From NCBI GenBank assembly GCA_038056025.1, contig JBBUGO010000005.1:1-53489 (forward strand): a stretch of 53,489 nt of DNA, read 5' to 3'. Below the pieces are notes generated by a model, which saw only the letters and a program-made list of their open reading frames with translations, was not told the origin of the DNA and made no database searches. The DNA comes from Patescibacteria group bacterium (GTDB lineage: Bacteria > Patescibacteriota > Minisyncoccia > 2-02-FULL-40-12 > GWA2-44-9). Every line of letters starts with the position of its first letter. Position 1 is the stretch's first letter. The translations under genes were made by a program, and so were the position numbers. Positions 2,720 to 53,489 of the stretch are shown in pieces.

Positions 2720-2838
2720 ATCGCTCCCTTATCAGTCCCCGAAAAGGCACGACGTTCCCATCCTTACTGATGGGCCGTCTTCTTCCCGTCCCTCTTCGGG
2801 ACTCCGAAAATCCTTTTTGGGGACTGATTACGGTCGCT
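2720..2838 (+). repeat. Family A structured repeat, copy A1
   Basis: ATCGCTCCCTTATCAGTCCCCGAAAAGGCACGACGTTCCCATCCTTACTGATGGGCCGTCTTCTTCCCGTCCCTCTTCGGGACTCCGAAAATCCTTTTTGGGGACTGATTACGGTCGCT. It is nearly identical, in inverted orientation, to 40984..41102. Confidence 0.9.
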
Positions 2839-3073
2839 AACGAACACTGGTCCGTAAAAAACAAGAAGCCCCACACGGTATAAGCTGTGGGGCTTCTGAG
2901 TGGCAGGGCGCAGAAAGTGAGAGACTAATCGGGGGTGAATAGGGCAACAAGCCCTATCACCAACAAACCAGTCGTTGCCACGATCCAAGCCACAAACCGT
3001 ATCTTTTCGCGCATGCTCATCTAACTCCTCCAGTATGCTAATCATAGCACCAATAGATGTTCTTGTCAATCCT

Positions 3074-11420: not shown

Positions 11421-12098
11421 ATGCCTCGCATTATATTCGATATAGAGACCGTGGGGGTCGACTTCACGACACTCGACCCCACCTCCCAGGAATCTCTCCT
11501 GCGCTACGCCCAAACAGATGAGGAAGAAAAAGAGCTCAAATCTCAACTCGGCTTCTCTCCCCTAACAGGCGAAATTGTGGCAATTGGCATCCTCAACCCC
11601 GATACCGATCGCGGTGCGGTCTACTTCCAAGCCCCTGATTCCCCTGCCCTTGCAGCGCGTGAGGAATCTAACGTCCAATACACTCCTGTACCAAACGAAA
11701 AAGAGCTCCTGCGACAGTTCTGGCAAGTCATGAGCCATTACGATCAATTCGTCACATTCAATGGGCGGGCATTTGATGGCCCCTACCTCATCATCCGTTC
11801 TGCAATCCGGAAAATAAAACCCACGGTAAACCTCATGCCGAATCGGTACTATGACACCCATATTGATTTGCTCGATCGCCTGACGTTTTTTGGCGCGGTC
11901 CGCCGCAAAATGAACCTCCACATGTGGTGTAAGGCGTTTGGCATTGAAAGCCCGAAGGATAAAGGCGTCACTGGTGATGACGTCGCACAATTATTTAAAG
12001 ATAAGCGCTACGAGGATATCGCCCGCTACTGCTATGACGACGTTCGTGCTACCAAGGAATTATTTTTTGCGTGGGATAAATATATAAATATTAAGTGA
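11421..12098 (+). CDS. DEDDy 3'-5' exonuclease, RNase H fold, related to the PolB exonuclease domain
   Basis: ExoI is IIFDIETVG, ExoII is TFNGRAFDGPYL, ExoIII is YCYDDVRAT. The ORF track starts at 11346. I prefer the ATG at 11421 (MPRIIFDIE). Confidence 0.8.
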   Translation: MPRIIFDIETVGVDFTTLDPTSQESLLRYAQTDEEEKELKSQLGFSPLTGEIVAIGILNPDTDRGAVYFQAPDSPALAAREESNVQYTPVPNEKELLRQFWQVMSHYDQFVTFNGRAFDGPYLIIRSAIRKIKPTVNLMPNRYYDTHIDLLDRLTFFGAVRRKMNLHMWCKAFGIESPKDKGVTGDDVAQLFKDKRYEDIARYCYDDVRATKELFFAWDKYINIK

Positions 12099-12099
12099 C

Positions 12100-12837
12100 A
12101 TGCAGTGGTATTCCAACGTAGACAATTTTAAAGCCGCTAACGGATACGAGGTGGATGGCATTTGGTATCCCCGCGTGACATCCATTCTCTCTATAAAGGC
12201 AAAGCCGGCGTTGTATATGTACTATGCGAACCTTCCAAGCTATAAGGTCGGCGAAGCGATAAAAACGCGTTCCGCGGAAGAAGGCACGCTCGTTCACGAA
12301 ACTATTGAAGCAATTCTAAGGAAGGAGCCCGTGGTAGTCCCCGACCCTATTAAGCCGTCCATTGAGGCGTTTATGGCATTTGCGAGCCAGCACGACATCG
12401 TCCCCCTTAAAATTGAGGAGCAGGTTGTTAGTAAACAGCATGGCTATGCCGGGACCATTGATGTGCTTGCAAAAGTTGACGGACAAATGGGTGTGTTGGA
12501 TATAAAAACATCCAAGGGCATTTATCGGGACTATGGAATGCAAACCGCGGCGTACGTGGAAGCATTCAGAGAATATCCCGACATTCCCCCGCTCACGAGT
12601 TGGATTATCAGGATTGATCAAGCGCGCACGTGCGAGTGGTGCGGTTCAAAGATGCGCGAAAAGGGCGGCAATGTAAAGGTGAGCGGCAAAAAGAACACCT
12701 GTGAGCATAAGTGGTCAGATATGCAGGGCGAATTTGAGTTCAAGCATATCGAGGGTCTCGAACACAACGTCAAGGCATTCCTAGCGGCAAAGACGCTCTG
12801 GGAATGGGAAAACCACGACTGGCTAAAGAAGATCTAG
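12100..12837 (+). CDS. PD-(D/E)XK (RecB/lambda-Exo/Cas4-like) nuclease with an inserted zinc ribbon
   Basis: GTIDVL...VLDIKTSK provides the D...D-x-K motif and MQTAAYVEAF provides QxxxY. The Cys cluster is CEWCG...CEH. It starts 1 nt after the exonuclease stop. Confidence 0.75.
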   Translation: MQWYSNVDNFKAANGYEVDGIWYPRVTSILSIKAKPALYMYYANLPSYKVGEAIKTRSAEEGTLVHETIEAILRKEPVVVPDPIKPSIEAFMAFASQHDIVPLKIEEQVVSKQHGYAGTIDVLAKVDGQMGVLDIKTSKGIYRDYGMQTAAYVEAFREYPDIPPLTSWIIRIDQARTCEWCGSKMREKGGNVKVSGKKNTCEHKWSDMQGEFEFKHIEGLEHNVKAFLAAKTLWEWENHDWLKKI

Positions 12838-12954
12838 CGCTCGCGTATCAGTCCCCGAAAAGGCACAACGTTCCCGCCTTTCTGGCGGGCCGTCTTCTTC
12901 TCGTCCCTCTTCGGGACTCCGAAAATCCTTTTTGGGGGACTGACTACAGTCGCC
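12836..12954 (+). repeat. Family A structured repeat, copy A2
   Basis: Same architecture as A1. The P2 helix is CCCGCC/GGCGGG instead of CCCATC/GATGGG. It overlaps the stop codon (12835-12837) of the + strand nuclease gene. Confidence 0.9.
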
Positions 12955-12966
12955 TACTTAAGCGCA

Positions 12967-13075
12967 GTGTCATTGTTCCCTACGCAGGCAACTTCGGAAT
13001 CCCGTCACACGGGATGAGAATTAGTGCGATTTGTAGTAACAAATCGACACGTGCCTGTCTGGGAATAATGACACG
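12967..13075 (+). repeat. Family B GC-rich palindromic mosaic repeat, copy B1
   Basis: Termini are GTGTCATTGTTCCCTACGCAGG ... CCTGTCTGGGAATAATGACAC. Internal hairpins are ATCCCGT/ACGGGAT and CGATTTG/CAAATCG. It follows A2 directly. Confidence 0.85.
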
Positions 13076-13082
13076 GAGCGGT

Positions 13083-13463
13083 CTACTGGCAGTTATCGGC
13101 GAGTGTATACCCCACCTGTTGGGCAAGGGTTTCATTGGCGAACCAGAGTTTGTTTTCTTCTTTGATGCGCTGGGCGCCGGAGCACCACGTAAAGTGGTAT
13201 TTCTTTGAATCGCTTGCTTTTGAGACAACGACTCGTGGGTCACGGGGAGCCGCGGTAGCTTGGGCAGCTGTCTCTTGGCCCTGTGCGGCTCGGAAAATTG
13301 CGGCGTCTTCGCCTATGGTCAGGGGCAGTTTGCCGCGACTGGCCAGTTTGCCCATCTGATAGCTCGTCAAAGCTATCAAGGCGATACACACAATGAGAAA
13401 AAGCTCGTATTGAACCTGTTTGACCCTGACACCTATTTGGGATAAAAGTTCGTTTAATTTCAT
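13083..13463 (-). CDS. Membrane-anchored protein with a C-terminal Ada-like ('sunset'-type) Cys motif
   Basis: I prefer the start MKLNELL at 13463 (ORF track extends to 13568). It has one TM helix (LFLIVCIALIALTSY). The C-terminus reads KKYHFTWCSGAQRIKEENKLWFANETLAQQVGYTLADNC. Confidence 0.6.
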   Translation of the reverse strand: MKLNELLSQIGVRVKQVQYELFLIVCIALIALTSYQMGKLASRGKLPLTIGEDAAIFRAAQGQETAAQATAAPRDPRVVVSKASDSKKYHFTWCSGAQRIKEENKLWFANETLAQQVGYTLADNCQ

Positions 13464-13603
13464 GATCAATAGTAAAACTGGTTTGTCTCTTACTTTTTCA
13501 TGCCGAATGGAAGAGGGCTTTTCTGGCGATAATCCCAAATAGGTGTGAGGGTTTGACGAAGTGAGCAATTTTTGTTAGCATATTCTGGCGTTTAGCATAC
13601 TCT

Positions 13604-13882
13604 ATGGCACATACAAAAGCGATAGGAACAACACAGTTGGGCCGCGACTCCCTGCCGAAATATCGTGGGGTGAAATTGCACGACGGTCAACCCGCACGCG
13701 CAGGCAATATTATTGTCCGTCAAACCGGTAGCTCGTACCTTGCAGGCGCCGGCGTGCGTGCTGGCTCCGACTATACACTCTATGCCGCAGTAAGCGGTGT
13801 CGTGAAGTTCACCAAGCGTAAAAAGAAGAATTATGACGGCTCTCGCCGAATCGCAACGGTTGTCAACGTGGTTTCTCAATAA
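13604..13882 (+). CDS. rpmA: Ribosomal protein bL27
   Basis: MAHTKAIGTTQLGRDS...GNIIVRQTG is the canonical L27 N-terminus. No rplU lies upstream. Confidence 0.95.
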   Translation: MAHTKAIGTTQLGRDSLPKYRGVKLHDGQPARAGNIIVRQTGSSYLAGAGVRAGSDYTLYAAVSGVVKFTKRKKKNYDGSRRIATVVNVVSQ

Positions 13883-13899
13883 CGATTTTACTTCTCGTT

Positions 13900-14015
13900 A
13901 TCGCTCGCCTATCAGCCCCCGAAAAGGCACAACGTTCCCGCCTCACTGGCGGGCCGTCTTCTTCTCGCGCCAGTCGCGCTCCGAAAATCCTTTTCGGCGA
14001 CTGATAATGCTCGCT
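13900..14015 (+). repeat. Family A structured repeat, copy A3
   Basis: P2 is CCCGCC/GGCGGG. The P3 stem is replaced by GCGC-cagtc-GCGC. P1 has 2 mismatches. It lies 18 nt after the rpmA stop. Confidence 0.85.
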
Positions 14016-14028
14016 CATGCCAAGCGCA

Positions 14029-14177
14029 GTGTCATTGTTCCCTACGCAGGTATTCACGGAGGCGAGCAGCAGGGTTCCGCCCTAGGCGGATGCGAGCCGA
14101 CCTGCCTGCCGCAGGTAGGGTTATAATGCGGCCCGCCGCTGGGCGGGCTGACACGGCCTGTCTGGGAACAATGACAC
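14029..14177 (+). repeat. Family B repeat, copy B2
   Basis: Termini are GTGTCATTGTTCCCTACGCAGG ... CCTGTCTGGGAACAATGACAC. Internal hairpins are CCGCC/GGCGG, CCTGC/GCAGG and GCCCGCC/GGCGGGC. It follows A3 directly. Confidence 0.85.
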
Positions 14178-14189
14178 GGAGATTGCTTG

Positions 14190-15885: not shown

Positions 15886-16705
15886 GGTGAGCGTAGCTGG
15901 GACGAGCGGTAGAAAAACCGTACTTTAAAAAATAGCGAATCCCGTCCATAAGGTGCCAGCGAGATTCGCGCTGCATAATGATATCAAAAATGCCGAAACG
16001 TCCTTTAGATTGACGGCGGTGATAGTGGTACATTTGCGCATGAGGAAAGTAGGTAACTGCGTAGCCATTTTCCCAAAATCGGCGCGCCCAGTCAACTTCG
16101 GAAAAATAGTGAAACATGCGTTCGTCCATGAGGCCAACTCGTTGTACTGCGGCTCGGCTAGTCATAAGCGCAGACCCCATAAGCCAATCGACGGGTATCG
16201 TTTTGCTTAAATCTGCATCCCGCATTAAAAATCTATTCAGGATGCGGTTTGCAAAAGGAAGATGGTTAACGCGGCGATAAAGAATGGTAAAGATGGAGTA
16301 AAAGCGGAAACACGATTGTTGCCGCGTGCCATTGAAATCAAGCAGCTGCGGTCCGAGAAGGCCGACTTGCGGATGGGCAACGAGATATTCGTAGAGACGC
16401 TTCACCGACCCTTTTGTAATCATGGCATCTGGGTTGAGAATGAGAAAGTGATCGCCACTGCTTTTGCGCATACCCTCGTTGTTGCCTCTTGTATAGCCGG
16501 TGTTTTCGCGATACGGCACGAGGGTAATTTTTTTGAAGAGAGTGGTAAACTCTTCACGAACGACATTTTGGGTTTCAACACTGGTTTGTGAATCGACTAC
16601 GACGACTTCATAGTCAAAGTGCGGAGAGAGTTCCCGTACAAGAGATCCGAGACATAAGCGCAGAAGCGCCGGATTTTTATAATTGACAATAACAATGGAG
16701 AGCAT
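15872..16705 (-). CDS. Family 2 glycosyltransferase
   Basis: N-terminus LSIVIVNYKN, then VVVDSQTS and LNPD, which match the GT-A DxD-type layout. Confidence 0.85.
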   Translation of the reverse strand: MLSIVIVNYKNPALLRLCLGSLVRELSPHFDYEVVVVDSQTSVETQNVVREEFTTLFKKITLVPYRENTGYTRGNNEGMRKSSGDHFLILNPDAMITKGSVKRLYEYLVAHPQVGLLGPQLLDFNGTRQQSCFRFYSIFTILYRRVNHLPFANRILNRFLMRDADLSKTIPVDWLMGSALMTSRAAVQRVGLMDERMFHYFSEVDWARRFWENGYAVTYFPHAQMYHYHRRQSKGRFGIFDIIMQRESRWHLMDGIRYFLKYGFSTARPSYAHHGTA

Positions 16706-17741: not shown

Positions 17742-18780
17742 GAGATGATTGTCGAAACCACTTACCCATTTCGCGCGGCGGAACTGTCGCCTTCGCCATC
17801 ACCAGCTGACGGCGATGCCACATGCGCGGCAGGAGGCGCAAAAACCGTCCGCACTCGAGGAATACTTTTGGCTCAACTAGAAGGGTATAAAAAAATACTC
17901 CCACTTCCCGCGCCAGAATCCATGGCATATCTCCCAGAATATTCAGTATATAGTCGTTTTTGATGATTGTAAAACGCACATTAGACCAGTCCCAGCGTCG
18001 TTTTTGCAGAGGTATCCTGCGCCGGACAGCCACCCGTTTGAGGACGTCTCCGAAAGAATGCGCAGCTCCCTTGGTTGTGGAGCGGTCATGCCATGCCACC
18101 ACATTCGGCGCATAGATTTGCTTCCAGCCAAAAAGATGCATCCGCCATCCCATATCGAGATCGTCGCCGTACCAAAAATAATCAGGGTCAGCAATGCGAC
18201 CCTCGATACGAATATCTTCCAATGCTTCCCGCCGGAATAATGGTGCGGCCCCCTCGGCGGCAAACAGTTCCCGCTGACGCGCGTACTGCGGCGCATCTGC
18301 TTGGCCGTGGCCGATGTTAACTACTTTTCGCGACCGCGTAAGTGCAAACCCGCAGGTATCAAGGGTGGTGGTAGTACGTTCTGCGCCGCCATCCCATTGA
18401 TACATTTTTGATTGAAGGGCCCCGATACGCGCATCGGACTCCATCACGGGTATCGCACGGGTAATAAAATCTTTATCAAGCACCACATCCGCAGAAAGCG
18501 CAAGGACATATTTCCCCTTGGTGCGGGACAGCAAATAATCCTGGCCGAGCCACATACCCACATTCTTCCCATGGACGTTTAGTGTCGCTTGCGGAAATTC
18601 TTTCTGAATAATCTCGCACGTAGCATCGGTAGAGGCGTTATCTAATACCACTACCTCCAGTGTGGGATACGTCTGGGCATAGACCCTTCGCAAGCAATCT
18701 CGTACATACGATTGCCCGTTGTGGACGACGATTTGAATGGACACGAGCGGATTATTCATGGTGAGCAGCAACGAGGGCAA
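17725..18780 (-). CDS. Family 2 glycosyltransferase (rhamnosyltransferase-like)
   Basis: VSIQIVVHNG...VVVLDNASTD, with a C-terminal extension. It overlaps both neighbouring genes. Confidence 0.85.
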   Translation of the reverse strand: MPSLLLTMNNPLVSIQIVVHNGQSYVRDCLRRVYAQTYPTLEVVVLDNASTDATCEIIQKEFPQATLNVHGKNVGMWLGQDYLLSRTKGKYVLALSADVVLDKDFITRAIPVMESDARIGALQSKMYQWDGGAERTTTTLDTCGFALTRSRKVVNIGHGQADAPQYARQRELFAAEGAAPLFRREALEDIRIEGRIADPDYFWYGDDLDMGWRMHLFGWKQIYAPNVVAWHDRSTTKGAAHSFGDVLKRVAVRRRIPLQKRRWDWSNVRFTIIKNDYILNILGDMPWILAREVGVFFYTLLVEPKVFLECGRFLRLLPRMWHRRQLVMAKATVPPREMGKWFRQSSHVPAN

Positions 18781-26867: not shown

Positions 26868-27325
26868 AGCGGGATCACTATAGCTTCATTTCTCATCACA
26901 TGCAATATGTTCGCCTCCCATTCTCCTTGGCCCATACTTCTCTCACTGACCATTTCAATCTTCGCTCGTCATCCTCCCGACAAAAATCTAGTTCCCGATT
27001 AGGGTTTCGGGCATACCTCAACCCATCGACCAGATTACTTTGTTGCCGGGCAGGATTTCCTCGCTCATCAGGAATGGTGACAACTCGTTCAGAATGGGCA
27101 GGAAAACGGGAGGCGCGCATTCGTCCGGCGTAGTAGTGATGTTCTCTCCTGAAGGACATTTCGCAGGCCTGATGGCTCGGTTTCAGCAGAACATCGGGTC
27201 GAGAATTGAGATAGTGGCTGGCCGCTGGAGCCAGACAACTATCGGTCCTGAACGGAGAGGACGCGCTACGGAGCACTAGGGACCTTCGTTGTAAAAGATG
27301 ATAAACCGTGGCATAATACACGTCC
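26868..27325. other. 458-nt non-coding divergent spacer built partly from family-B-like modules
   Basis: No convincing ORF. It shares GATGGC..GGTTTCAGCAGAACATCG..CGAG with 35941-35978. It also shares TCGGGCATAC and GGCGC(GC)ATTCG.CC blocks with 28540-28610. Confidence 0.6.
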
Positions 27326-28075
27326 ATGACAAAACGAACGCGCCGCATCCTTTTTTATACCTGTGCCATCCTTTTTCTTGTCGTAAGTTATGTGGCAATC
27401 ACCTATTCTCTCGGCTATAAATACAGTTTCCGTGAAGGGCGCTTTTTTCGAACCGGCGCTTTGACTTTGCAGGTATCCACCTCCGCTAATGTGTATGTTA
27501 ACGACAAATTGGAAGGTTCGACCTCGCTTCTCACCAACAGTTTTGGCTTCGATCGCCTTTTGCCGGGTGTCTATTCGATTCGAGCCCAGCGTGATGGATA
27601 TACCTCATGGCAAAAAAATGTGACGGTGTACGAGGGATTGGTGACCGACTTCCCCAACGTCCTTCTCCTCCCGACGGATGATGAGAGCGGCGTAAAACTC
27701 ATGACTGAAGTTAGGGAGATATTTACGACACCCGTCGAGAAGACTGCCGATATTGTACTTCGCCAACGGGCGCTCTATCGTGTCGTTGAGGAGCGGCAGG
27801 AACTTATTGCTAAAGATGTGTATGGATATGTGCTGTCAGAAGACGGCAGTCGCCTTCTGTGGTGGACACCCCGCGAGATTTGGGTACTCTGGTTGTCCGA
27901 TACCTCCTATCAACCCGTCAAATCAAACGGCAACCGTGAGCTCATCGTGAAAAGTCCGACTGCCATTAAACGCGCGCAGTGGTTCCGCGGCAACGACCAC
28001 ATCGTATTTGAAGCTGCGGGATACAAGATTGTCGAGATCGACACCCGCAGCGGGGTGAATGTGATAAAGCTATAA
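27326..28075 (+). CDS. Membrane-anchored PEGA-domain protein
   Basis: N-terminal TM helix. PEGA-like stretch reads ANVYVNDKLEGSTS...LLPGVYSIRAQRDGYTSWQKNVTV. Confidence 0.7.
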   Translation: MTKRTRRILFYTCAILFLVVSYVAITYSLGYKYSFREGRFFRTGALTLQVSTSANVYVNDKLEGSTSLLTNSFGFDRLLPGVYSIRAQRDGYTSWQKNVTVYEGLVTDFPNVLLLPTDDESGVKLMTEVREIFTTPVEKTADIVLRQRALYRVVEERQELIAKDVYGYVLSEDGSRLLWWTPREIWVLWLSDTSYQPVKSNGNRELIVKSPTAIKRAQWFRGNDHIVFEAAGYKIVEIDTRSGVNVIKL

Positions 28076-28660: not shown

Positions 28661-29221
28661 CTATCGCTTGCTCCACCTGCCTGATTTCCTCGCTTTCTTA
28701 TGTCCATACTTACGGCGTTCTTTTGCGCGGGGATCGCGCTTGAGGAGGCCCGACTTTTTGAGTTTTTTGCGGAAGTTGCTGTCAAAATGCTCCAACGCGC
28801 GCGCAATGCCGTGGCGTATCGCTTCTGCTTGCCCCGAACTGCCGCCGCCACGCACAACAACTGTGGCCTTGAAACGGCTCAATGACTTTAATTTGCGCAA
28901 GGGCGCCTCAATGACTGCAACGAGATCCTTATTGGTAAAGTATACGGCGTAATCCTTGCCGTTGACGGTGATGAGCGCCTTATCTTCTTGAACCTGGTCC
29001 GTTGACTTACGGGTATAGAGACGCACACGGGCGACGGACTCTTTGCGGCGACCCACGGCTTCAAAATATTTTTCTTTGGCGGCATCTGACGCCGCGGCAA
29101 ACTTTACCTCATCGATGGCAGGTGTATCGTCGTTCTCAACAACGGGAATGACAACTTTCTGGACGAGAGATGGTGCCAGTTTTTCCTGTTTCGGTTTTTT
29201 TATAGTGGCTTTACGAGGCAT
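28661..29221 (-). CDS. rpsI: Ribosomal protein uS9 with a roughly 55-aa N-terminal extension
   Basis: The C-terminus GGGSSGQAEAIRHGIARAL...RDPRAKERRKYGHKKARKSGRWSKR is canonical S9. Confidence 0.95.
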   Translation of the reverse strand: MPRKATIKKPKQEKLAPSLVQKVVIPVVENDDTPAIDEVKFAAASDAAKEKYFEAVGRRKESVARVRLYTRKSTDQVQEDKALITVNGKDYAVYFTNKDLVAVIEAPLRKLKSLSRFKATVVVRGGGSSGQAEAIRHGIARALEHFDSNFRKKLKKSGLLKRDPRAKERRKYGHKKARKSGRWSKR

Positions 29222-29359
29222 AAAAGTGTAAATTCTAAATTCTAATATCTAAATCCGAAACAATATCAAAATTCAAATGCTCGAAGTCAGGAATAATTTT
29301 GGATTTAGAACTTTTGATCATTTGAATTTGTTTAGGATTTCGTGCTTAGGATTTAGGGT
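29222..29359. repeat. Family C AT-rich long hairpin, copy C1 (fills the rpsI-rplM spacer)
   Basis: The 5' block AAATTCTAAATTCTAATATCTAAATCC pairs with the 3' block GGATTTCGTGCTTAGGATTTAGGGTTT. The central stem is AAATTCAAATG/CATTTGAATTT. Confidence 0.85.
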
Positions 29360-30058: not shown

Positions 30059-30781
30059 TTATTTCTTGGACCGGCTTTTCTTGGTCGGTGTTTCTTGCGT
30101 AACCGGAAGTTGAGTCACCACATTGAAATGCTCAATAAGAATTTCGGAGGCCCGTTTTAATGCGGCTTCCGGCGAAATAGTCCCGTCGGTTTCAACTTCC
30201 ATAGTGACTTTATTGAAGTCAATCTGTTGTCCTACGCGAATGTCGTCAATGCGGAAATTAACCAGTTTCACCGGTGAGAAGATGGCATCGATAGAAATGA
30301 TGCCGATAGGAAGTTTGCCCTTTTGACGCTGTTCTACCGGCACATAGCCGATACCCTTCTCAATGGTAAATTCCATCTCCAGTTCCGCCTTTTTATCGGT
30401 AATCGTGGCAATGGGTTGATCTTCGTTGATAACCTCAACATCCGGTGTCACCTGAATGTCCTGTGCAGTTACCGCATTCTCACCTTTCACGAGTAGCTTT
30501 AGGACCACCGGATCCTGCGAGAACGATCGCAAGCGGATCTTTTTGACATTCAAGATAATCTGTATGACGTCTTCGGCAACCCCCGGTATTGTTGAAAATT
30601 CGTGGTCAACACCCTTAATTTTAATGGAGGTGATGGCCGCACCTTCCAGCGACGATAAGAGAATCCGTCTCAACGGATTGGCTAGTGTCGGACCGTAGCC
30701 GGGCATGAGCGGCGCAATCTCAAATACCGCTCGATTCCCTTCCTTACTCACTACTTTTACTGATTCTGGCAACTGGATCAT
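30059..30781 (-). CDS. rpoA: RNA polymerase alpha subunit, N-terminal domain only (240 aa)
   Basis: GYGPTLANPLRRILLSSLEGAAITSIKI and the alpha-NTD layout are present. The ORF ends in a basic tail (TPTKKSRSKK) 2 nt before rplQ. Confidence 0.9.
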   Translation of the reverse strand: MIQLPESVKVVSKEGNRAVFEIAPLMPGYGPTLANPLRRILLSSLEGAAITSIKIKGVDHEFSTIPGVAEDVIQIILNVKKIRLRSFSQDPVVLKLLVKGENAVTAQDIQVTPDVEVINEDQPIATITDKKAELEMEFTIEKGIGYVPVEQRQKGKLPIGIISIDAIFSPVKLVNFRIDDIRVGQQIDFNKVTMEVETDGTISPEAALKRASEILIEHFNVVTQLPVTQETPTKKSRSKK

Positions 30782-30913: not shown

Positions 30914-31549
30914 TTAGCGGGAATAAAATTCAATAATTGCTTGCACATCGCTTATTTGAATGCCGCTATCGGCCAGTGACGGCAATTGTTTTACTTCTCC
31001 GGTTATCGCATCTTTATCCACCGCGACCCACGCAGGAGCTTCGTGATTTTTTAACCATTGCGGCATAAAGCTTCCAAAGTAGGGCGCGCGGCGACTACCC
31101 TCGCGAATAGAGATGGTATCGCCTGGCCGGACAGTATACGATGGAATGTCCACCTTCTTATTATTTACCAAAAAGTGACCGTGATTGACTAATTGGCGCG
31201 CCTGATCACGCGATTGGGCAAATCCCATCCGGTATACCACGTTATCGAGACGGCTTTCCAATGCACGTACCAACCCATCGTAGGGGTCGGTTTTCTGCTC
31301 GAGGATTTTCTTAACATAGTTCTTAAACTGCCGCTCCATGAGCCGATACACCGCTCTCACTTTTTGTTTGGAGCGGAGTTGTTGGGCAAATTCCGATGGT
31401 TTGGCGGCGCGACGGTGTCCATGCTGACCTGGAGGATATGGCTTTTTCATCGCCGCAGATTTCTGCGAATGAGAACGCTCCCCCTTCAGGAATAATTTTT
31501 CCCCTAGACGGCGCTCTATTTTTTCTCGTGGTCCGGTATAGCGTGCCAT
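30914..31549 (-). CDS. rpsD: Ribosomal protein uS4
   Basis: MARYTGPREKIERRLG... plus an S4 RNA-binding domain (LDNVVYRMGFAQSRDQARQLVNHGH). Confidence 0.95.
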   Translation of the reverse strand: MARYTGPREKIERRLGEKLFLKGERSHSQKSAAMKKPYPPGQHGHRRAAKPSEFAQQLRSKQKVRAVYRLMERQFKNYVKKILEQKTDPYDGLVRALESRLDNVVYRMGFAQSRDQARQLVNHGHFLVNNKKVDIPSYTVRPGDTISIREGSRRAPYFGSFMPQWLKNHEAPAWVAVDKDAITGEVKQLPSLADSGIQISDVQAIIEFYSR

Positions 31550-35889: not shown

Positions 35890-35902
35890 GAGTTACAGAG
35901 AA

Positions 35903-36034
35903 TTTATTATAATACCCCCTACGCAGGCAACACGGAGGAGCGATGGCATGGTTTCAGCAGAACATCGCACCGAGTATTAGCGCGCCTTGTCGCTGGACAA
36001 GACGACGCGGCCTGTCTGGGGATATTATAATAAA
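35903..36034 (+). repeat. Family B repeat, copy B3 (different outer stem)
   Basis: The core CCCTACGCAGG...CGGCCTGTCTGGG is flanked by TTTATTATAATA / TATTATAATAAA instead of GTGTCATTGTT / AACAATGACAC. Confidence 0.8.
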
Positions 36035-36036
36035 TT

Positions 36037-37707
36037 CTAAGTTACCGTTGCCCTAATCCTCCGTACTCCTGCTGATACTGCCTCTTCTTTGATAATCTTA
36101 AACTTCCCTATGTCGCGGGTACGCTCCACATGCGGGCCACCACAGAATTCTTTACTGAATGCGGTTTCCAGTGAATCTCCTACAAAATAGATATTCACTG
36201 GATCGGGATATTTCTCTTTAAAATAGAATAGGGCCCCCGTCTCCTCCGCCTCTGATCTTGGTTTCGTGACCTTCTGTACTGGCAAATCCTTACCGATAAC
36301 ATCGTTCACGATATCTTCGACATTCTTGATTTCACTCGCGGTAAGTTTGCGATCAAAGGTAAAATCGAAGCGTGTGCGCTCCACCGTGATATCAGAACCG
36401 GCCTGATGCACGCTCTCTCCCAATACATTTCGCAACGCCTGGTGTAATAAATGTGTAGCCGTATGCAGCCGCGTAACTTTTTTTAATTCTTTCTCGTCTG
36501 CGGCCCTTAATTCCCCGGTGCTAAGCACTAACCCATGTCCGCCGAATTTCTTTTCAGCTCCCGCACGGGATTTTTCTTTATGCGCTAAAGCTGCCTCGTT
36601 ATACTCTTCGCGCAATTTATCAAAATTGAAGTCCAGCTTTTCATCTCTAATCAAATCCTCGGTTAATATGAATGGGAATCCAAAGCTCTCGTGTAAGTAG
36701 TAAGCATCTAACCCAGAAAATATATTCGTGTTCCAGCGTCGGCGAAACTCTCTTAGTCCCGCCTCAAGTGTTTTAAGAAATTTTTGTTTTTCTCCTTCAA
36801 ATATCGGTCCGAGGCGCGAGGCCGACAGTTTATTGACATACTCGAGAGTGACTACCCGACGAATCAATCGGCGCAGCACATATCCGCGGTCTTTATTGGA
36901 AGGCTGAAGACCCTCTGAAACTAGTGCTTCAATGGCACGAGCATGATCGGCGATAATTCGATCCGCGCGACTGGTGGGATGACCTGGAAATAAATCCGTC
37001 TCGTAGATATTCTTTTTCTTTTGTACCATCATTGCCAGCCGTTCCAAGCCCATCCCGGTATCGATGCCTTTGGTTTTTAGTGGAGTCAGTTTTTCGAGTA
37101 CTTGATCTCTTAACAATTCTTCTCGAGTCCCCTTGTAATAATATTCATTGAATACCAGATTCCATACCTCAATTCCGTCAATATAAAACTCCACTGTTGG
37201 GCCACACGGACCTTCGCTTCCGGTCGGCCCCCAAAAATTATCTTCAATACCTCCTTCATCTAATTTCTCCATCAACCAAGAATTATTCTCAATTATACCT
37301 TTTGACTCTATATCCCTACCTCCGGCCACTGGACCCCCATAATAAGTTATTGAAATTCGAGAATGATCGATTCTTAATTCATTAATTAAGAAGGTTGCAG
37401 CCCACTGAATCGCCTCTTTTTTCCAATACCCCCCGAAGCTGAAGTTCCCCAACATTTCAAAAAATGTGAGGTGGGATTCGTCGCCCACCTCATCGATGTC
37501 AGAGGTGCGGATACATTTTTGAATTGAAGCAATATTTTTCGCGGGAGCAAGCTCTGGGCTGGTATAGTATTTCTTGAACTGCTGCATACCGGCAGTCGTA
37601 AAAAGCACTGACGGATCGTCGGGCAATAACGATGAAGACGGCACCCATATGTGCCCCCTGGCTTCAAAAAATTTCTTAAACCGCTCCCGAATCTCTTGGT
37701 GTGTCAT
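36037..37707 (-). CDS. alaS: Alanyl-tRNA synthetase, short form (556 aa)
   Basis: FTTAGMQQFK, GIDTGMGLERL, RGYVLRRLIRR, and the editing-site motifs HTATHLLH and CGGPHV are present. The protein ends right after the editing domain. Confidence 0.9.
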   Translation of the reverse strand: MTHQEIRERFKKFFEARGHIWVPSSSLLPDDPSVLFTTAGMQQFKKYYTSPELAPAKNIASIQKCIRTSDIDEVGDESHLTFFEMLGNFSFGGYWKKEAIQWAATFLINELRIDHSRISITYYGGPVAGGRDIESKGIIENNSWLMEKLDEGGIEDNFWGPTGSEGPCGPTVEFYIDGIEVWNLVFNEYYYKGTREELLRDQVLEKLTPLKTKGIDTGMGLERLAMMVQKKKNIYETDLFPGHPTSRADRIIADHARAIEALVSEGLQPSNKDRGYVLRRLIRRVVTLEYVNKLSASRLGPIFEGEKQKFLKTLEAGLREFRRRWNTNIFSGLDAYYLHESFGFPFILTEDLIRDEKLDFNFDKLREEYNEAALAHKEKSRAGAEKKFGGHGLVLSTGELRAADEKELKKVTRLHTATHLLHQALRNVLGESVHQAGSDITVERTRFDFTFDRKLTASEIKNVEDIVNDVIGKDLPVQKVTKPRSEAEETGALFYFKEKYPDPVNIYFVGDSLETAFSKEFCGGPHVERTRDIGKFKIIKEEAVSAGVRRIRATVT

Positions 37708-38717: not shown

Positions 38718-38779
38718 ATGGGGGGCTAGAGGCCTGCCTGCGCAGGCAGGGAATCGGTCACAGTATGGGGGGCTAGAGG
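38718..38779. repeat. 15-nt direct duplication of the tRNA-His 3' end flanking an 18-nt palindrome
   Basis: ATGGGGGGCTAGAGG occurs at 38718-38732 and again at 38765-38779. CCTGCCTGCGCAGGCAGG lies between them at 38733-38750. Confidence 0.8.
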
Positions 38780-38840
38780 GAATCGAACCCTCGATCGCGC
38801 TGCCACAGAGCGCTGTGATAACCTCTTCACCATAGCCCCC
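38767..38840 (-). tRNA. tRNA-His (anticodon GTG) with a genome-encoded G-1
   Basis: Hand-folded cloverleaf. The acceptor is G(-1)GGGGCTA/TAGCCCC+C73. The D-stem is GTGA/TCAC. The anticodon stem GCGCT/AGCGC carries the loop CTGTGGC. The T-arm is GAGGGTTCGATTCCCTC. Confidence 0.88.
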
Positions 38841-39795: not shown

Positions 39796-39867
39796 CCCCT
39801 CGTAGTTCAATGGATAGAACAGCGCTCTTCTAAGGCGTTGATGTGGGTTCGATTCCTACCGAGGGGA
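39796..39867 (+). tRNA. tRNA-Arg (anticodon TCT)
   Basis: The acceptor is CCCCTCG/CGAGGGG (C1-G72). The D-arm is GTTC-AATGGATA-GAAC. The anticodon loop is CTTCTAA. The T-arm is GTGGGTTCGATTCCTAC. A73 is present and CCA is not encoded. Confidence 0.85.
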
Positions 39868-39868
39868 C

Positions 39869-39939
39869 CGGGCTGGCGTATGATGGTGGTACGCGTGGTT
39901 TGGGACCACGTAGACTGGGTTCGATTCCCAGCAGCCCGA
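39869..39939 (+). tRNA. tRNA-Pro (anticodon TGG)
   Basis: The acceptor is CGGGCTG/CAGCCCG (C1-G72, typical for bacterial tRNA-Pro). The anticodon stem CGTGG/CCACG carries the loop TTTGGGA. The T-arm is CTGGGTTCGATTCCCAG. Position 8 is G, which is atypical. Confidence 0.8.
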
Positions 39940-39997
39940 CTGACGAGCGAAGGCGAGGAAGTACTGAGCGCAGCAGCGCGAATGTGCAGATTGAATC

Positions 39998-40071
39998 GCG
40001 GGATTGGTATATCGGTATTACGCCACCCTTCCAAGGTGGAGAGAGGGGTTCAATTCCCCTATCCCGCTCCA
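39998..40071 (+). tRNA. tRNA-Gly (anticodon TCC), CCA encoded
   Basis: The acceptor is GCGGGAT/ATCCCGC. The anticodon stem CCACC/GGTGG carries the loop CTTCCAA. The T-arm is AGGGGTTCAATTCCCCT. U73 and CCA follow. Confidence 0.9.
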
Positions 40072-40930: not shown

Positions 40931-40959
40931 GGCGAGACTTCGGTCTCGCCTTTCGCTTT
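40931..40959 (+). terminator. Rho-independent terminator
   Basis: GGCGAGAC-ttcg-GTCTCGCC followed by TTTCGCTTT. Confidence 0.8.
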
Positions 40960-40983
40960 ATATACAACCAACTAATGTGCGTC

Positions 40984-41102
40984 AGCGACCGTAATCAGTC
41001 CCCGAAAAGGATTTTCGGAGTCCCGAAGAGGGACGAGAAGAAGGCGGCCCATCAGTAAGGATGGGAACGTCGTGCCTTTTCGGGGACTGATAAGGGAGCG
41101 AT
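40984..41102 (-). repeat. Family A structured repeat, copy A4 (inverted relative to A1)
   Basis: Its reverse complement differs from A1 at only about 3 positions over about 119 nt. It lies 3 nt downstream of the rny stop, in the sense orientation relative to rny. Confidence 0.9.
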
Positions 41103-52911: not shown

Positions 52912-53358
52912 ATGGCATACCTCCTGGTTCTTGCGGTGATATTCGGCCTGATATTCTCCGGAGCATTAGGTATGTTGCCATTTAAAAACGTGTTTGATTC
53001 CGCGCGCACCAACATCACCCAATCGCTTTTCCCAAAATCAGATCGTGAAATCCTCATTGAAAATCTTCAAAAGAAATCGTCCGCTATTGAAAAGGTTTTA
53101 CAAAAACAATCGGCGGCACTTTCCGGTGGTGGGACGGCCCCCACAACAACTGAATTAAAAGAGGCACTCACTGCCGCACAGGAATCGCAAACGATCATTG
53201 ACACGCTCAAAGAAGCGGCGGAGGCACAAAATACGGTGAGTGAGTCACTGATTCAAAAAGTCATTTCGTCGTGGTCAGAAAAGCCCGTATCAGAAGGCGC
53301 TAACCTGCAACCCTCCCCCAGTATCCCCGCTGGATGTAACCTCGTCTGCCCAGAGTAG
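52912..53358 (+). CDS. Membrane-anchored hypothetical protein (148 aa)
   Basis: The ATG at 52912 (MAYLLVLAVIFGLIFSGALG) lies 1 nt after the pilin-like gene's TGA stop (52908-52910). The remainder is helical and Q/E/K-rich. Confidence 0.55.
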   Translation: MAYLLVLAVIFGLIFSGALGMLPFKNVFDSARTNITQSLFPKSDREILIENLQKKSSAIEKVLQKQSAALSGGGTAPTTTELKEALTAAQESQTIIDTLKEAAEAQNTVSESLIQKVISSWSEKPVSEGANLQPSPSIPAGCNLVCPE

Positions 53359-53406
53359 CTCCGTCTTTCTCTCCTCCCCCGGCGTGCACCTAAAAAATTA
53401 AGCTTC

Positions 53407-53489
53407 GTGTCATTATTCCCAGACAGGCCGCGTCAGCGTGTCCAGCGACACGCTGCACTATGACTCGGCTCGCATCCGCCAAGGGCGGA
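53407..53489 (-). repeat. Family B repeat, copy B4 (inverted, cut by the window end)
   Basis: GTGTCATTATTCCCAGACAGGCCG... is the reverse complement of the B 3' terminus. Its interior shares GTCGCTGGAC with B3 and GGCGGATGCGAGCCGA with B2. Confidence 0.75.

Follow-up and report, generated by a model that had tools for sequence, protein, structure and literature searches.

What is the roughly 120-nt intergenic element that recurs in a 53,489-nt stretch of Patescibacteria group bacterium DNA (contig JBBUGO010000005.1, assembly GCA_038056025.1; hereafter the window)? A first-pass annotation, made from the letters of the window, had described four copies of a three-helix element, called family A, and proposed either a structured RNA or a miniature mobile element. 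We find that the four folded copies are real and non-random. The answer that we prefer, at a probability of roughly 0.55, is that they belong to a superfamily of interspersed repeats, ~120-170 nt long, structured, mosaic and specific to one lineage, of the kind known from REP/BIME-REPIN, ERIC, BOX/SPRITE and bcr1, unrelated to these in sequence and built as a three-way junction.

All four copies are present in the window, at the positions listed below, where P1 to P3 denote the helices and R1 a covariance model built from these four copies only.

2720-2840, plus strand: A1, a full family A element (R1 score 146 bits); P1 2731-2747 with 2812-2828, P2 2751-2779 (upper stem 2757-2774 plus a 3-4 bp lower stem), P3 2788-2802; joiners GGCAC.., ..CUUCUUC.. 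and UCCGAAAAU; CGCU motif at both ends
12836-12956, plus strand: A2, whose 5' end provides the TAG stop codon of a PD-(D/E)XK nuclease gene (12100-12837)
13900-14017, plus strand: A3, 17 nt past the stop codon of rpmA, with the variant P3 GCGC/GCGC
40982-41102, minus strand: A4, 3 nt past the stop codon of rny, 97% identical to A1

The common fold that had been proposed for these copies holds: all four form the same three-way junction, which RNAalifold also recovers, with a 17-bp closing helix (P1), a P2 of 6 bp at its top and 3-4 bp at its base, and a P3 of 4-5 bp. Folding z-scores range from -3.9 to -7.3, and none of 200 shuffles folds equally well. Beyond P1, the constant CGCU at both element ends allows the GC dinucleotides to pair with each other as an outer 2-bp helix. 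Alignment bears out the exchange described in P2 (CCCATC/GATGGG in A1 and A4, CCCGCC/GGCGGG in A2 and A3) and the replacement of P3 (GCGC/GCGC in A3, GTCCC/GGGAC in the other three copies). The joiners are conserved as described, with a single T>C change in A4, and a 21-nt block of the first joiner matches exactly at the four family A sites only (0 expected from 100 shuffles). A1 and A4, which lie 38 kb from each other on opposite strands, do share 97% identity over the element, and their homology extends beyond it (2717-2846). The reverse strand of the A copies folds as well, in fact better, which corrects the earlier single-strand reading.

The impression that the element belongs to no known family was also right, as no element matched Rfam 15 at gathering thresholds. 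Over the whole window, the same search returned only four tRNAs; with E values up to 10, A1 gave only miRNA-type noise (≤16 bits) and 12750-14100 gave no match. A hammerhead or other ribozyme was considered and rejected, the joiners being unlike known cores and Rfam silent. The same DNA is present in three replicate assemblies from the 0.1 µm fraction of Hainich groundwater well H43 and in the metagenome-assembled genome (MAG) GCA_964366015.1, where the window is part of a 217,701-bp contig (CAYISC010000001.1); this recurrence excludes an assembly artefact. A Patescibacteria group MAG encodes a protein identical to the window's RNase Y, and the nearest named relatives are Yanofskybacteria and Paceibacterota.

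Family A proved not to be self-contained. Judged by sequence and predicted fold, it is one branch of a larger superfamily of folded intergenic repeats, to which 12959-13082, 14020-14186 and 35892-36045 also belong as diverged homologues that share its architecture. Further A copies came from a pattern anchored on the three joiners and diverged relatives from R1, and a second model (R2) was built from the R1 matches. Members besides A1 to A4 are given below; L numbers denote stretches outside the window, L014 and L015 being its flanks in the source contig and L020/L021 coming from Hainich well H41, and letters a and b distinguish two elements of one stretch.

12959-13082, minus strand: B, a diverged homologue, tail-to-tail with A2; matched end to end by R1 (30.4 bits, E 1e-8 to 1e-6)
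14020-14186, minus strand: B', a long B-type element, tail-to-tail with A3, just past the rplI stop codon
35892-36045, minus strand: C, with the B-type core CAGACAGG...CCUGCGUAG and AT-rich outer arms; R2 21 bits (35899-36038)
53399-53489, plus strand: window-end element, the 5' part of a B-type element (27 bits), complete as L015 8321-8466
26961-27067, plus strand: a weak, possibly degenerate member (R1 16 bits, R2 12 bits) in the divergent mreB/27326(+) region
~27110-27285, minus strand: a degenerate C-like stretch facing 26961-27067, recognised by eye only; a repeat links 27162-27207 to the interior of C
L008:2957-3075, minus strand: new A copy, from the joiner pattern
L009:2619-2740, plus strand: new A copy, from the joiner pattern
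L010:7452-7571, plus strand: new A copy, from the joiner pattern (same locus as L011)
L009:2761-2903, minus strand: added by R2, as was C
L014:2973-3095, minus strand: added by R2
L015:7414-7554, plus strand: added by R2
L015:8321-8466, minus strand: added by R2
L008:715-852, minus strand: added by R2
L010:335-475, plus strand: added by R2

The joiner-only pattern, run against a metagenome collection, led to four further stretches, all from Hainich H43 and having only the repeats in common with the window. The new A copies sit 17-35 nt past a gene and in its sense, the preceding genes encoding a family X DNA polymerase, a glycosyltransferase and a mannosyltransferase. R1 matches three diverged elements end to end, B (30 bits), L014:2819-2940 (38 bits) and L020:11532-11654 (35 bits), in which the P1 and P2 sequences are entirely different yet still paired. 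What is kept across branches is a set of unpaired motifs: CGCUCC at the 5' end, GGCAC after P1, UACU in the P2 loop, YCUC before P3, UCCG after P3 and CGCU at the 3' end. Thus B, which starts 1 nt past the stop codon of the open reading frame (ORF) 13083-13568 (minus strand), has the same P0/P1/P2/P3 layout with different helix sequences and retains CGCUCC, GGCAC, the UACU loop, UUCUC and UCCGAA, and the P1 arms of B' are those of B, with additional internal hairpins. C overlaps the stop codon of the gene at 36037-37707 (minus strand), whose syntenic counterpart in L018 has alanyl-tRNA synthetase domains, and ends 3 nt before the next gene; the window-end element starts ~40 nt past the stop codon of the gene ending at 53358. 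The two degenerate facing elements lie in the 460-nt divergent region between mreB and 27326 (26868-27325), where a 150-aa ORF (26896-27348, minus strand) matches nothing in Pfam and is unlikely to be a gene.

The longer B-type group (14020-14186, 35892-36045, the window-end element, L008b and L010b) has the invariant core CAGACAGG...CCUGCGUAG with differing outer arms and swapped internal hairpins. The idea that these cores were inserted into unrelated older hairpins was weakened, since the outer arms of L008b and L010b align as diverged homologues. In a third lineage, L024 carries a reduced version with the B-type core after rny, flanked by an A-tract and a U-tract. A small hairpin module, CCUGCGGCAGG, recurs at L014 2941-2972, at 14090-14110 of the window and at L009 ~2820-2840, as a spacer between paired elements or as an extra hairpin inside B-type elements.

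The covariation noted among the four copies grows much stronger once further copies and diverged relatives are aligned. For 13 distinct sequences on the R2 structure plus one added 3-bp helix (UUC/GAA to AUC/GAU, AC/GU), 91.2% of cells are paired, compared with 68% in shuffles and 38-48% in slid controls (partner columns displaced by 1-3), the percentage being inflated by the fitting of the alignments to the model structure. Both sides have changed in 32 of the 37 pairs, which 0 of 500 shuffles reach; overall, the observed values were reached by 0/500 shuffles on four of five measures and by 1/500 on the fifth. An earlier set of 10 sequences gave similar values (92.3% paired, 29/34 pairs changed on both sides). 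Sequence identity between branches is 30-54%, with the fold retained. The sequences counted are mutually related, and despite this kinship and the fitted alignment, the effect is far above the stated false-positive behaviour of the tool. Neither Rfam nor the larger alignment speaks against the structured element first described, nor did the copies turn out to be simple decayed MITEs.

The elements also behave as repeats. Their density in ~72 kb of the source contig (the window with the L014 and L015 flanks) is ~11 solid elements, with two degenerate ones besides. Truncated B-type 5' ends precede L010a and L008a, and the variants of P2, P3 and the tail are combined as a mosaic among the A copies. 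All five two-element clusters (A2/B, A3/B', L009a/b, L014a/b and the degenerate mreB pair) face each other 3' end to 3' end, which random orientation would produce with a probability of ~0.001. Short contigs with an identical L27 gene end inside the repeats. No element was found in ~72 kb (~83 kb in another tally) of four relatives with RNase Y 78-81% identical to that of the window (L017, L018, L022 and L023), searched with the models without filters, and in L024 (RNase Y 76%, 21.5 kb) the sole member is the reduced B-type hairpin after rny, which the pattern detected and the model missed. Searches of plasmid and phage collections with blastn returned no similar DNA, and the A-type and B-type patterns had no match in viral contigs. 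The pattern GAAAAGGCACNACGTTCCC gave seven single matches in GTDB species representatives, from unrelated phyla, which we regard as chance because none fits the covariance model. A descriptor search (P3 hairpin, TCCG and closing stem) was far too permissive and was dropped, and the translated element matched only a spurious ORF of the source genome itself in a collection of 5.8 billion proteins. The elements have multiplied within one groundwater Patescibacteria lineage (Paceibacteria/Yanofskybacteria-like). A search for empty sites through identical L27 proteins returned only short contigs of the same population and no presence/absence polymorphism between close strains. No target-site duplication was visible in the flanks of 18 elements, whose boundaries are uncertain by a few nt, and only the constant CGCU recurred. 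The latter was rejected as a target duplication, the motif being constant and its GC dinucleotides pairing together.

With respect to genes, three of the four A copies (A2, A3 and A4) do lie directly 3' of a gene and in its sense, as the first-pass annotation had it for the nuclease gene, rpmA and rny. A1 is antisense to both of its flanking genes and probably outside any mRNA, with an ABC-3 permease gene's canonical terminator (2862-2898, minus strand) on one side and the efp promoter (TTGCAA-16-TATAAT at 2711-2684, rated good) on the other. Overall, 15 elements are directly 3' of a gene, in its sense and 0-47 nt past the stop codon. Only single elements are informative on orientation, because the facing pairs are symmetrical and occur in both convergent (three) and divergent (two) regions. 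Nine of the 11 singles are in the sense of the upstream gene, 0-47 nt past its stop codon (A4, L008a, L010a, C, the window-end element, L015a, L008b, L020 and L024), and two, A1 and L010b, lie antisense upstream of a gene. No element reaches into coding sequence further than to contribute a stop codon (A2, C). An excess of UAG stop codons beside elements (5/7 compared with 33% overall) was not convincing. Between the convergent genes nuclease/ORF 13083 and rpmA/rplI, the intergenic space holds only these elements, and ordinary hairpin-plus-U terminators are present elsewhere in the genome, for example at 2862-2898 (minus strand) and 40932-40960 (plus strand).

The site 3' of rny holds a superfamily element in three lineages (the source genome, L020 and L024) and a canonical terminator in L017 and L022; the insert after rny in L023 has no significant structure. 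In the L020/L021 organism, which is different from the source (RNase Y 77% identical), the element is directly past the rny stop codon. Downstream of rny, the promoter region of the HU gene (TTTTCCACA..CCTATTGCAA..17 nt..TACACAAT-like) is conserved across relatives (L018/L020/L023/L024, ~11560-11700) and provides a fixed landmark for reading the variable insert.

Several other explanations could account for parts of this picture. That the elements are elaborated intrinsic terminators would fit their occupying the places of terminators at convergent gene ends, the weakly terminator-like flag on P2 followed by the C/U-rich tail CCGUCUUCUU, and the A-tract and U-tract around the L024 version. However, no U-tract follows P1 or P0 in A or B elements, the U-rich tail after P2 is lost in B-type elements, and the genome uses the canonical hairpin-plus-U type elsewhere; because the closing helix has no following U-tract, we consider terminators highly improbable. 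A classical MITE (miniature inverted-repeat transposable element), that is, a deletion derivative of an insertion sequence (IS) whose transposase binds P1 as terminal inverted repeats and makes target-site duplications, would be multi-copy, intergenic and ~120 nt, as observed; P1 resembles terminal inverted repeats of 17-22 bp, and CGCU stands at both ends in direct orientation. In this form, the mobile-element half of the original proposal fails. The P1 arms differ completely between branches with homologous interiors, so there is no common transposase-binding end, and the conserved bases are in the junction and flanks rather than in the arms. CGCU is constant rather than copy-specific, with no other flanking direct repeats, the covarying internal hairpins are not predicted by MITE decay, and neither a parent IS nor a transposase was found in ~107 kb (~72 kb from the 217.7-kb contig and ~35 kb from others). 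We therefore hold a MITE to be improbable. Only slightly less so is the view that the palindromes are kept by a mutational process (template switching or gene conversion) without selection on a folded molecule. It would explain why whole hairpins are exchanged between copies with nearly identical linkers, why both strands fold and why the variants are mosaic, but not why a particular three-way architecture and particular unpaired motifs are still present where identity has dropped to 30-50%, and in another organism as well, nor why the elements are placed at gene ends. A group II intron remnant, a retron and an integron attC site were ruled out by anatomy and gene context.

The strongest rival, which we nevertheless find doubtful, is a dedicated cis-acting structured RNA, a portable module of the 3' untranslated region (UTR) for protein binding, RNase processing or non-canonical termination, selected by the host and without selfish spread. 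It draws on the strong covariation in all helices, the conserved UACU, YCUC and UCCG motifs, the occupation of the rny 3' site in three lineages and the 9:2 bias of singles, many of them adjoining the stop codon, towards the upstream gene's sense. R2 no longer gives reverse strands high scores, which means that the sequence motifs are strand-specific. Set against this, most close relatives lack the element, A1 (upstream of the efp promoter and past a terminator) is outside any obvious transcript, divergent promoter regions contain pairs that are antisense to both genes, the wobble asymmetry favours the other strand, and there are truncated and chimeric copies as well as near-identical copies beside unrelated genes. 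The first half of the original proposal stands in that the element is structured, repeated and not in Rfam, whereas there is less to be said for an RNA than there had seemed to be, because the orientation bias rests on the singles, the pairs face each other in divergent regions too, and wobble pairs favour the complement. RNA and mobile DNA are probably not mutually exclusive.

Our preferred reading as structured interspersed repeats accommodates these features: the elements are multi-copy, non-coding, intergenic, ~100-200 nt long, lineage-restricted and stably folded, which places them among such repeats in the broad sense. Their anatomy, distribution and covariation are established, whereas transcription, an effect on mRNA and mobility are inferred. 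Several points weigh against this reading. No transposase, HUH/Y1 enzyme or reverse transcriptase was identified in the ~107 kb examined, and the percentage of paired cells carries the inflation described above. Without the facing pairs, the bias in orientation is modest (9 vs. 2, two-sided p ~0.07). Mismatches on the modelled strand are A·C in 18 cells (11 events) and G·U in 7 (3 events; p ~0.04-0.06), and, folded as RNA, the reverse complement is the more stable strand for 18 of 19 elements (59 G·U pairs vs. 24); its greater stability is partly due to the modelled strand being C-rich and G-poor (33% vs. 23%). Orientation thus favours the sense strand and wobble asymmetry the complementary strand. 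This conflict would be consistent with selection for folding of the complementary strand, be it as DNA or as an RNA made by convergent transcription, and also with chance plus base composition.

How such repeats might work can be sketched. The fold would be selected in single-stranded form and required by a copying enzyme, the product of a gene elsewhere in the genome, which would act in trans on the folded single strand, either single-stranded DNA or RNA; copying by such a route fits the absence of terminal duplications. Since most singles lie 0-47 nt past a stop codon in the sense of the gene, the elements are probably co-transcribed as a 3' structure. An mRNA that includes an element would carry at its 3' side a very stable structure, closed by a helix of 17-22 bp and acting most plausibly as a 3'-end protection or processing element, and between convergent genes the element would stand in the place of terminators. 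A bolder version, which we advance tentatively and regard as possible rather than probable, is that these repeats are a new class of structure-defined element, a portable three-way junction that settles at gene ends without the hallmarks of inverted repeats and duplications, is copied as a folded single strand and serves the host as a 3'-end or anti-readthrough RNA device. If such a mobile, modular 3' UTR existed, the G·U preference of the complementary strand would reflect action against incoming convergent transcription, or a folded template-strand DNA.

Among known systems, REP/BIME and REPIN-RAYT of Enterobacteria and Pseudomonas are similar in being intergenic, structured and multi-copy, often at convergent genes or 3' ends (PMC3184786, PMC3116915), with inverted paired units, mosaics with conserved linkers, maintained hairpins, a short motif beside the hairpin and no target-site duplication. 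REP elements stabilise upstream mRNA (PMC3184786, PMC3116915), and the REPIN-RAYT model covers structure-dependent persistence (PMC3116915). By contrast, a REP is a simple hairpin of 20-40 nt and a REPIN a plain hairpin of two REPs, whereas the elements described here are three-way junctions of 120-170 nt, without sequence similarity or a GTAG motif. They thus lack the short unit of REP/REPIN and do have conserved end motifs (CGCUCC/CGCU) and inverted pairing. No gene for RAYT, a Y1 HUH transposase, is encoded in the ~107 kb.

Closer in size (~100-170 nt) are ERIC/IRU, BOX, RUP, SPRITE, bcr1 and Correia elements, which likewise have extensive predicted structure, are lineage-restricted and are co-transcribed (PMC3049150, PMC3184786). 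BOX is modular, bcr1 keeps its structure through compensatory changes and SPRITE is terminator-like (PMC3049150, PMC3184786). Strong structure, co-transcription, restriction to a lineage and a probably parasitic nature are described for the pneumococcal BOX, RUP and SPRITE (PMC3049150), and REP/BIME, ERIC, Correia, Rickettsia palindromic elements (RPE) and bcr1 have been reviewed together as small structured interspersed repeats (PMC3184786). The new elements have no sequence or Rfam relationship to ERIC- or BOX-type repeats, and they are conserved in the junction and variable in the arms, in contrast to bcr1, RUP and Correia, whose inverted ends are defined and which come with target duplications. 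RPEs are palindromic, 100-150 nt long and have proliferated, as several diverged families, in a small, host-dependent genome (PMC3184786), which is again similar, except that RPEs are often in frame inside genes and the present elements are outside coding sequence.

Integron attC sites offer another comparison. They are imperfect palindromes of 60-140 nt located directly 3' of ORFs, with structure more conserved than sequence; one specific DNA strand folds, and some have branched tips. In the present elements, inspection of the aligned sequences revealed no R''/R' core sites (RYYYAAC / GTTRRRY), and the neighbours are housekeeping genes (rpmA, rplI, rny, efp) in mixed orientation, with no cassette array and no integrase.

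Other repeats and mobile features are present in the window and in related contigs. An AT-rich repeat family has four copies between 29220 and 32766, in the spacers of a ribosomal-protein/rpoA operon (S9 28661-29221, RpoA 30059-30781, S4 30914-31549); in its units, TCTAATTTCTAATATCTAA... pairs with ...GATTTAGGGATTCGTGCTTAGGATTT through 33-nt inverted arms, and R1 touches one copy weakly (29238-29320, 14.6 bits). ORF 13083-13568 (minus strand), which has no Pfam match and may be spurious or the site of another repeat, contains a 21-nt inverted repeat at 13423-13552 (95% complementary, 88-nt spacer). The four tRNA genes are at 38768-38839 (minus strand) and within 39796-40068 (plus strand), the latter three tightly clustered beside the HU gene. 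In L020, an inverted 61-nt repeat of 69% GC (16195-16255, plus strand; 18629-18689, minus strand) brackets peptidase M15 and D-Ala-D-Ala ligase genes. Genes for large serine recombinases (Resolvase, Recombinase and Zn_ribbon_recom domains) occur at L021 11014-13146 and L022 18543-20378, the latter with a PemK toxin gene nearby, which suggests integrated mobile elements unrelated to the repeats.

Overall, the superfamily is a new family of a familiar sort of bacterial repeat in an unexpected host, as genomes of Patescibacteria (the candidate phyla radiation, CPR) are small and streamlined, and a full-text literature search for REP-, ERIC- or MITE-like repeat families in Patescibacteria/CPR returned no report. 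About 2% of the 72-kb stretch consists of this one structured repeat superfamily, and the elements break short-read assemblies of these genomes. The preservation of the fold down to 30-50% identity makes it an unusually clean case of structure kept within a repeat population. If the elements are copied via a folded single strand, this would point to a mobilising enzyme, and if they act on mRNA 3' ends, they would bear on how transcripts are ended and stabilised in Patescibacteria.

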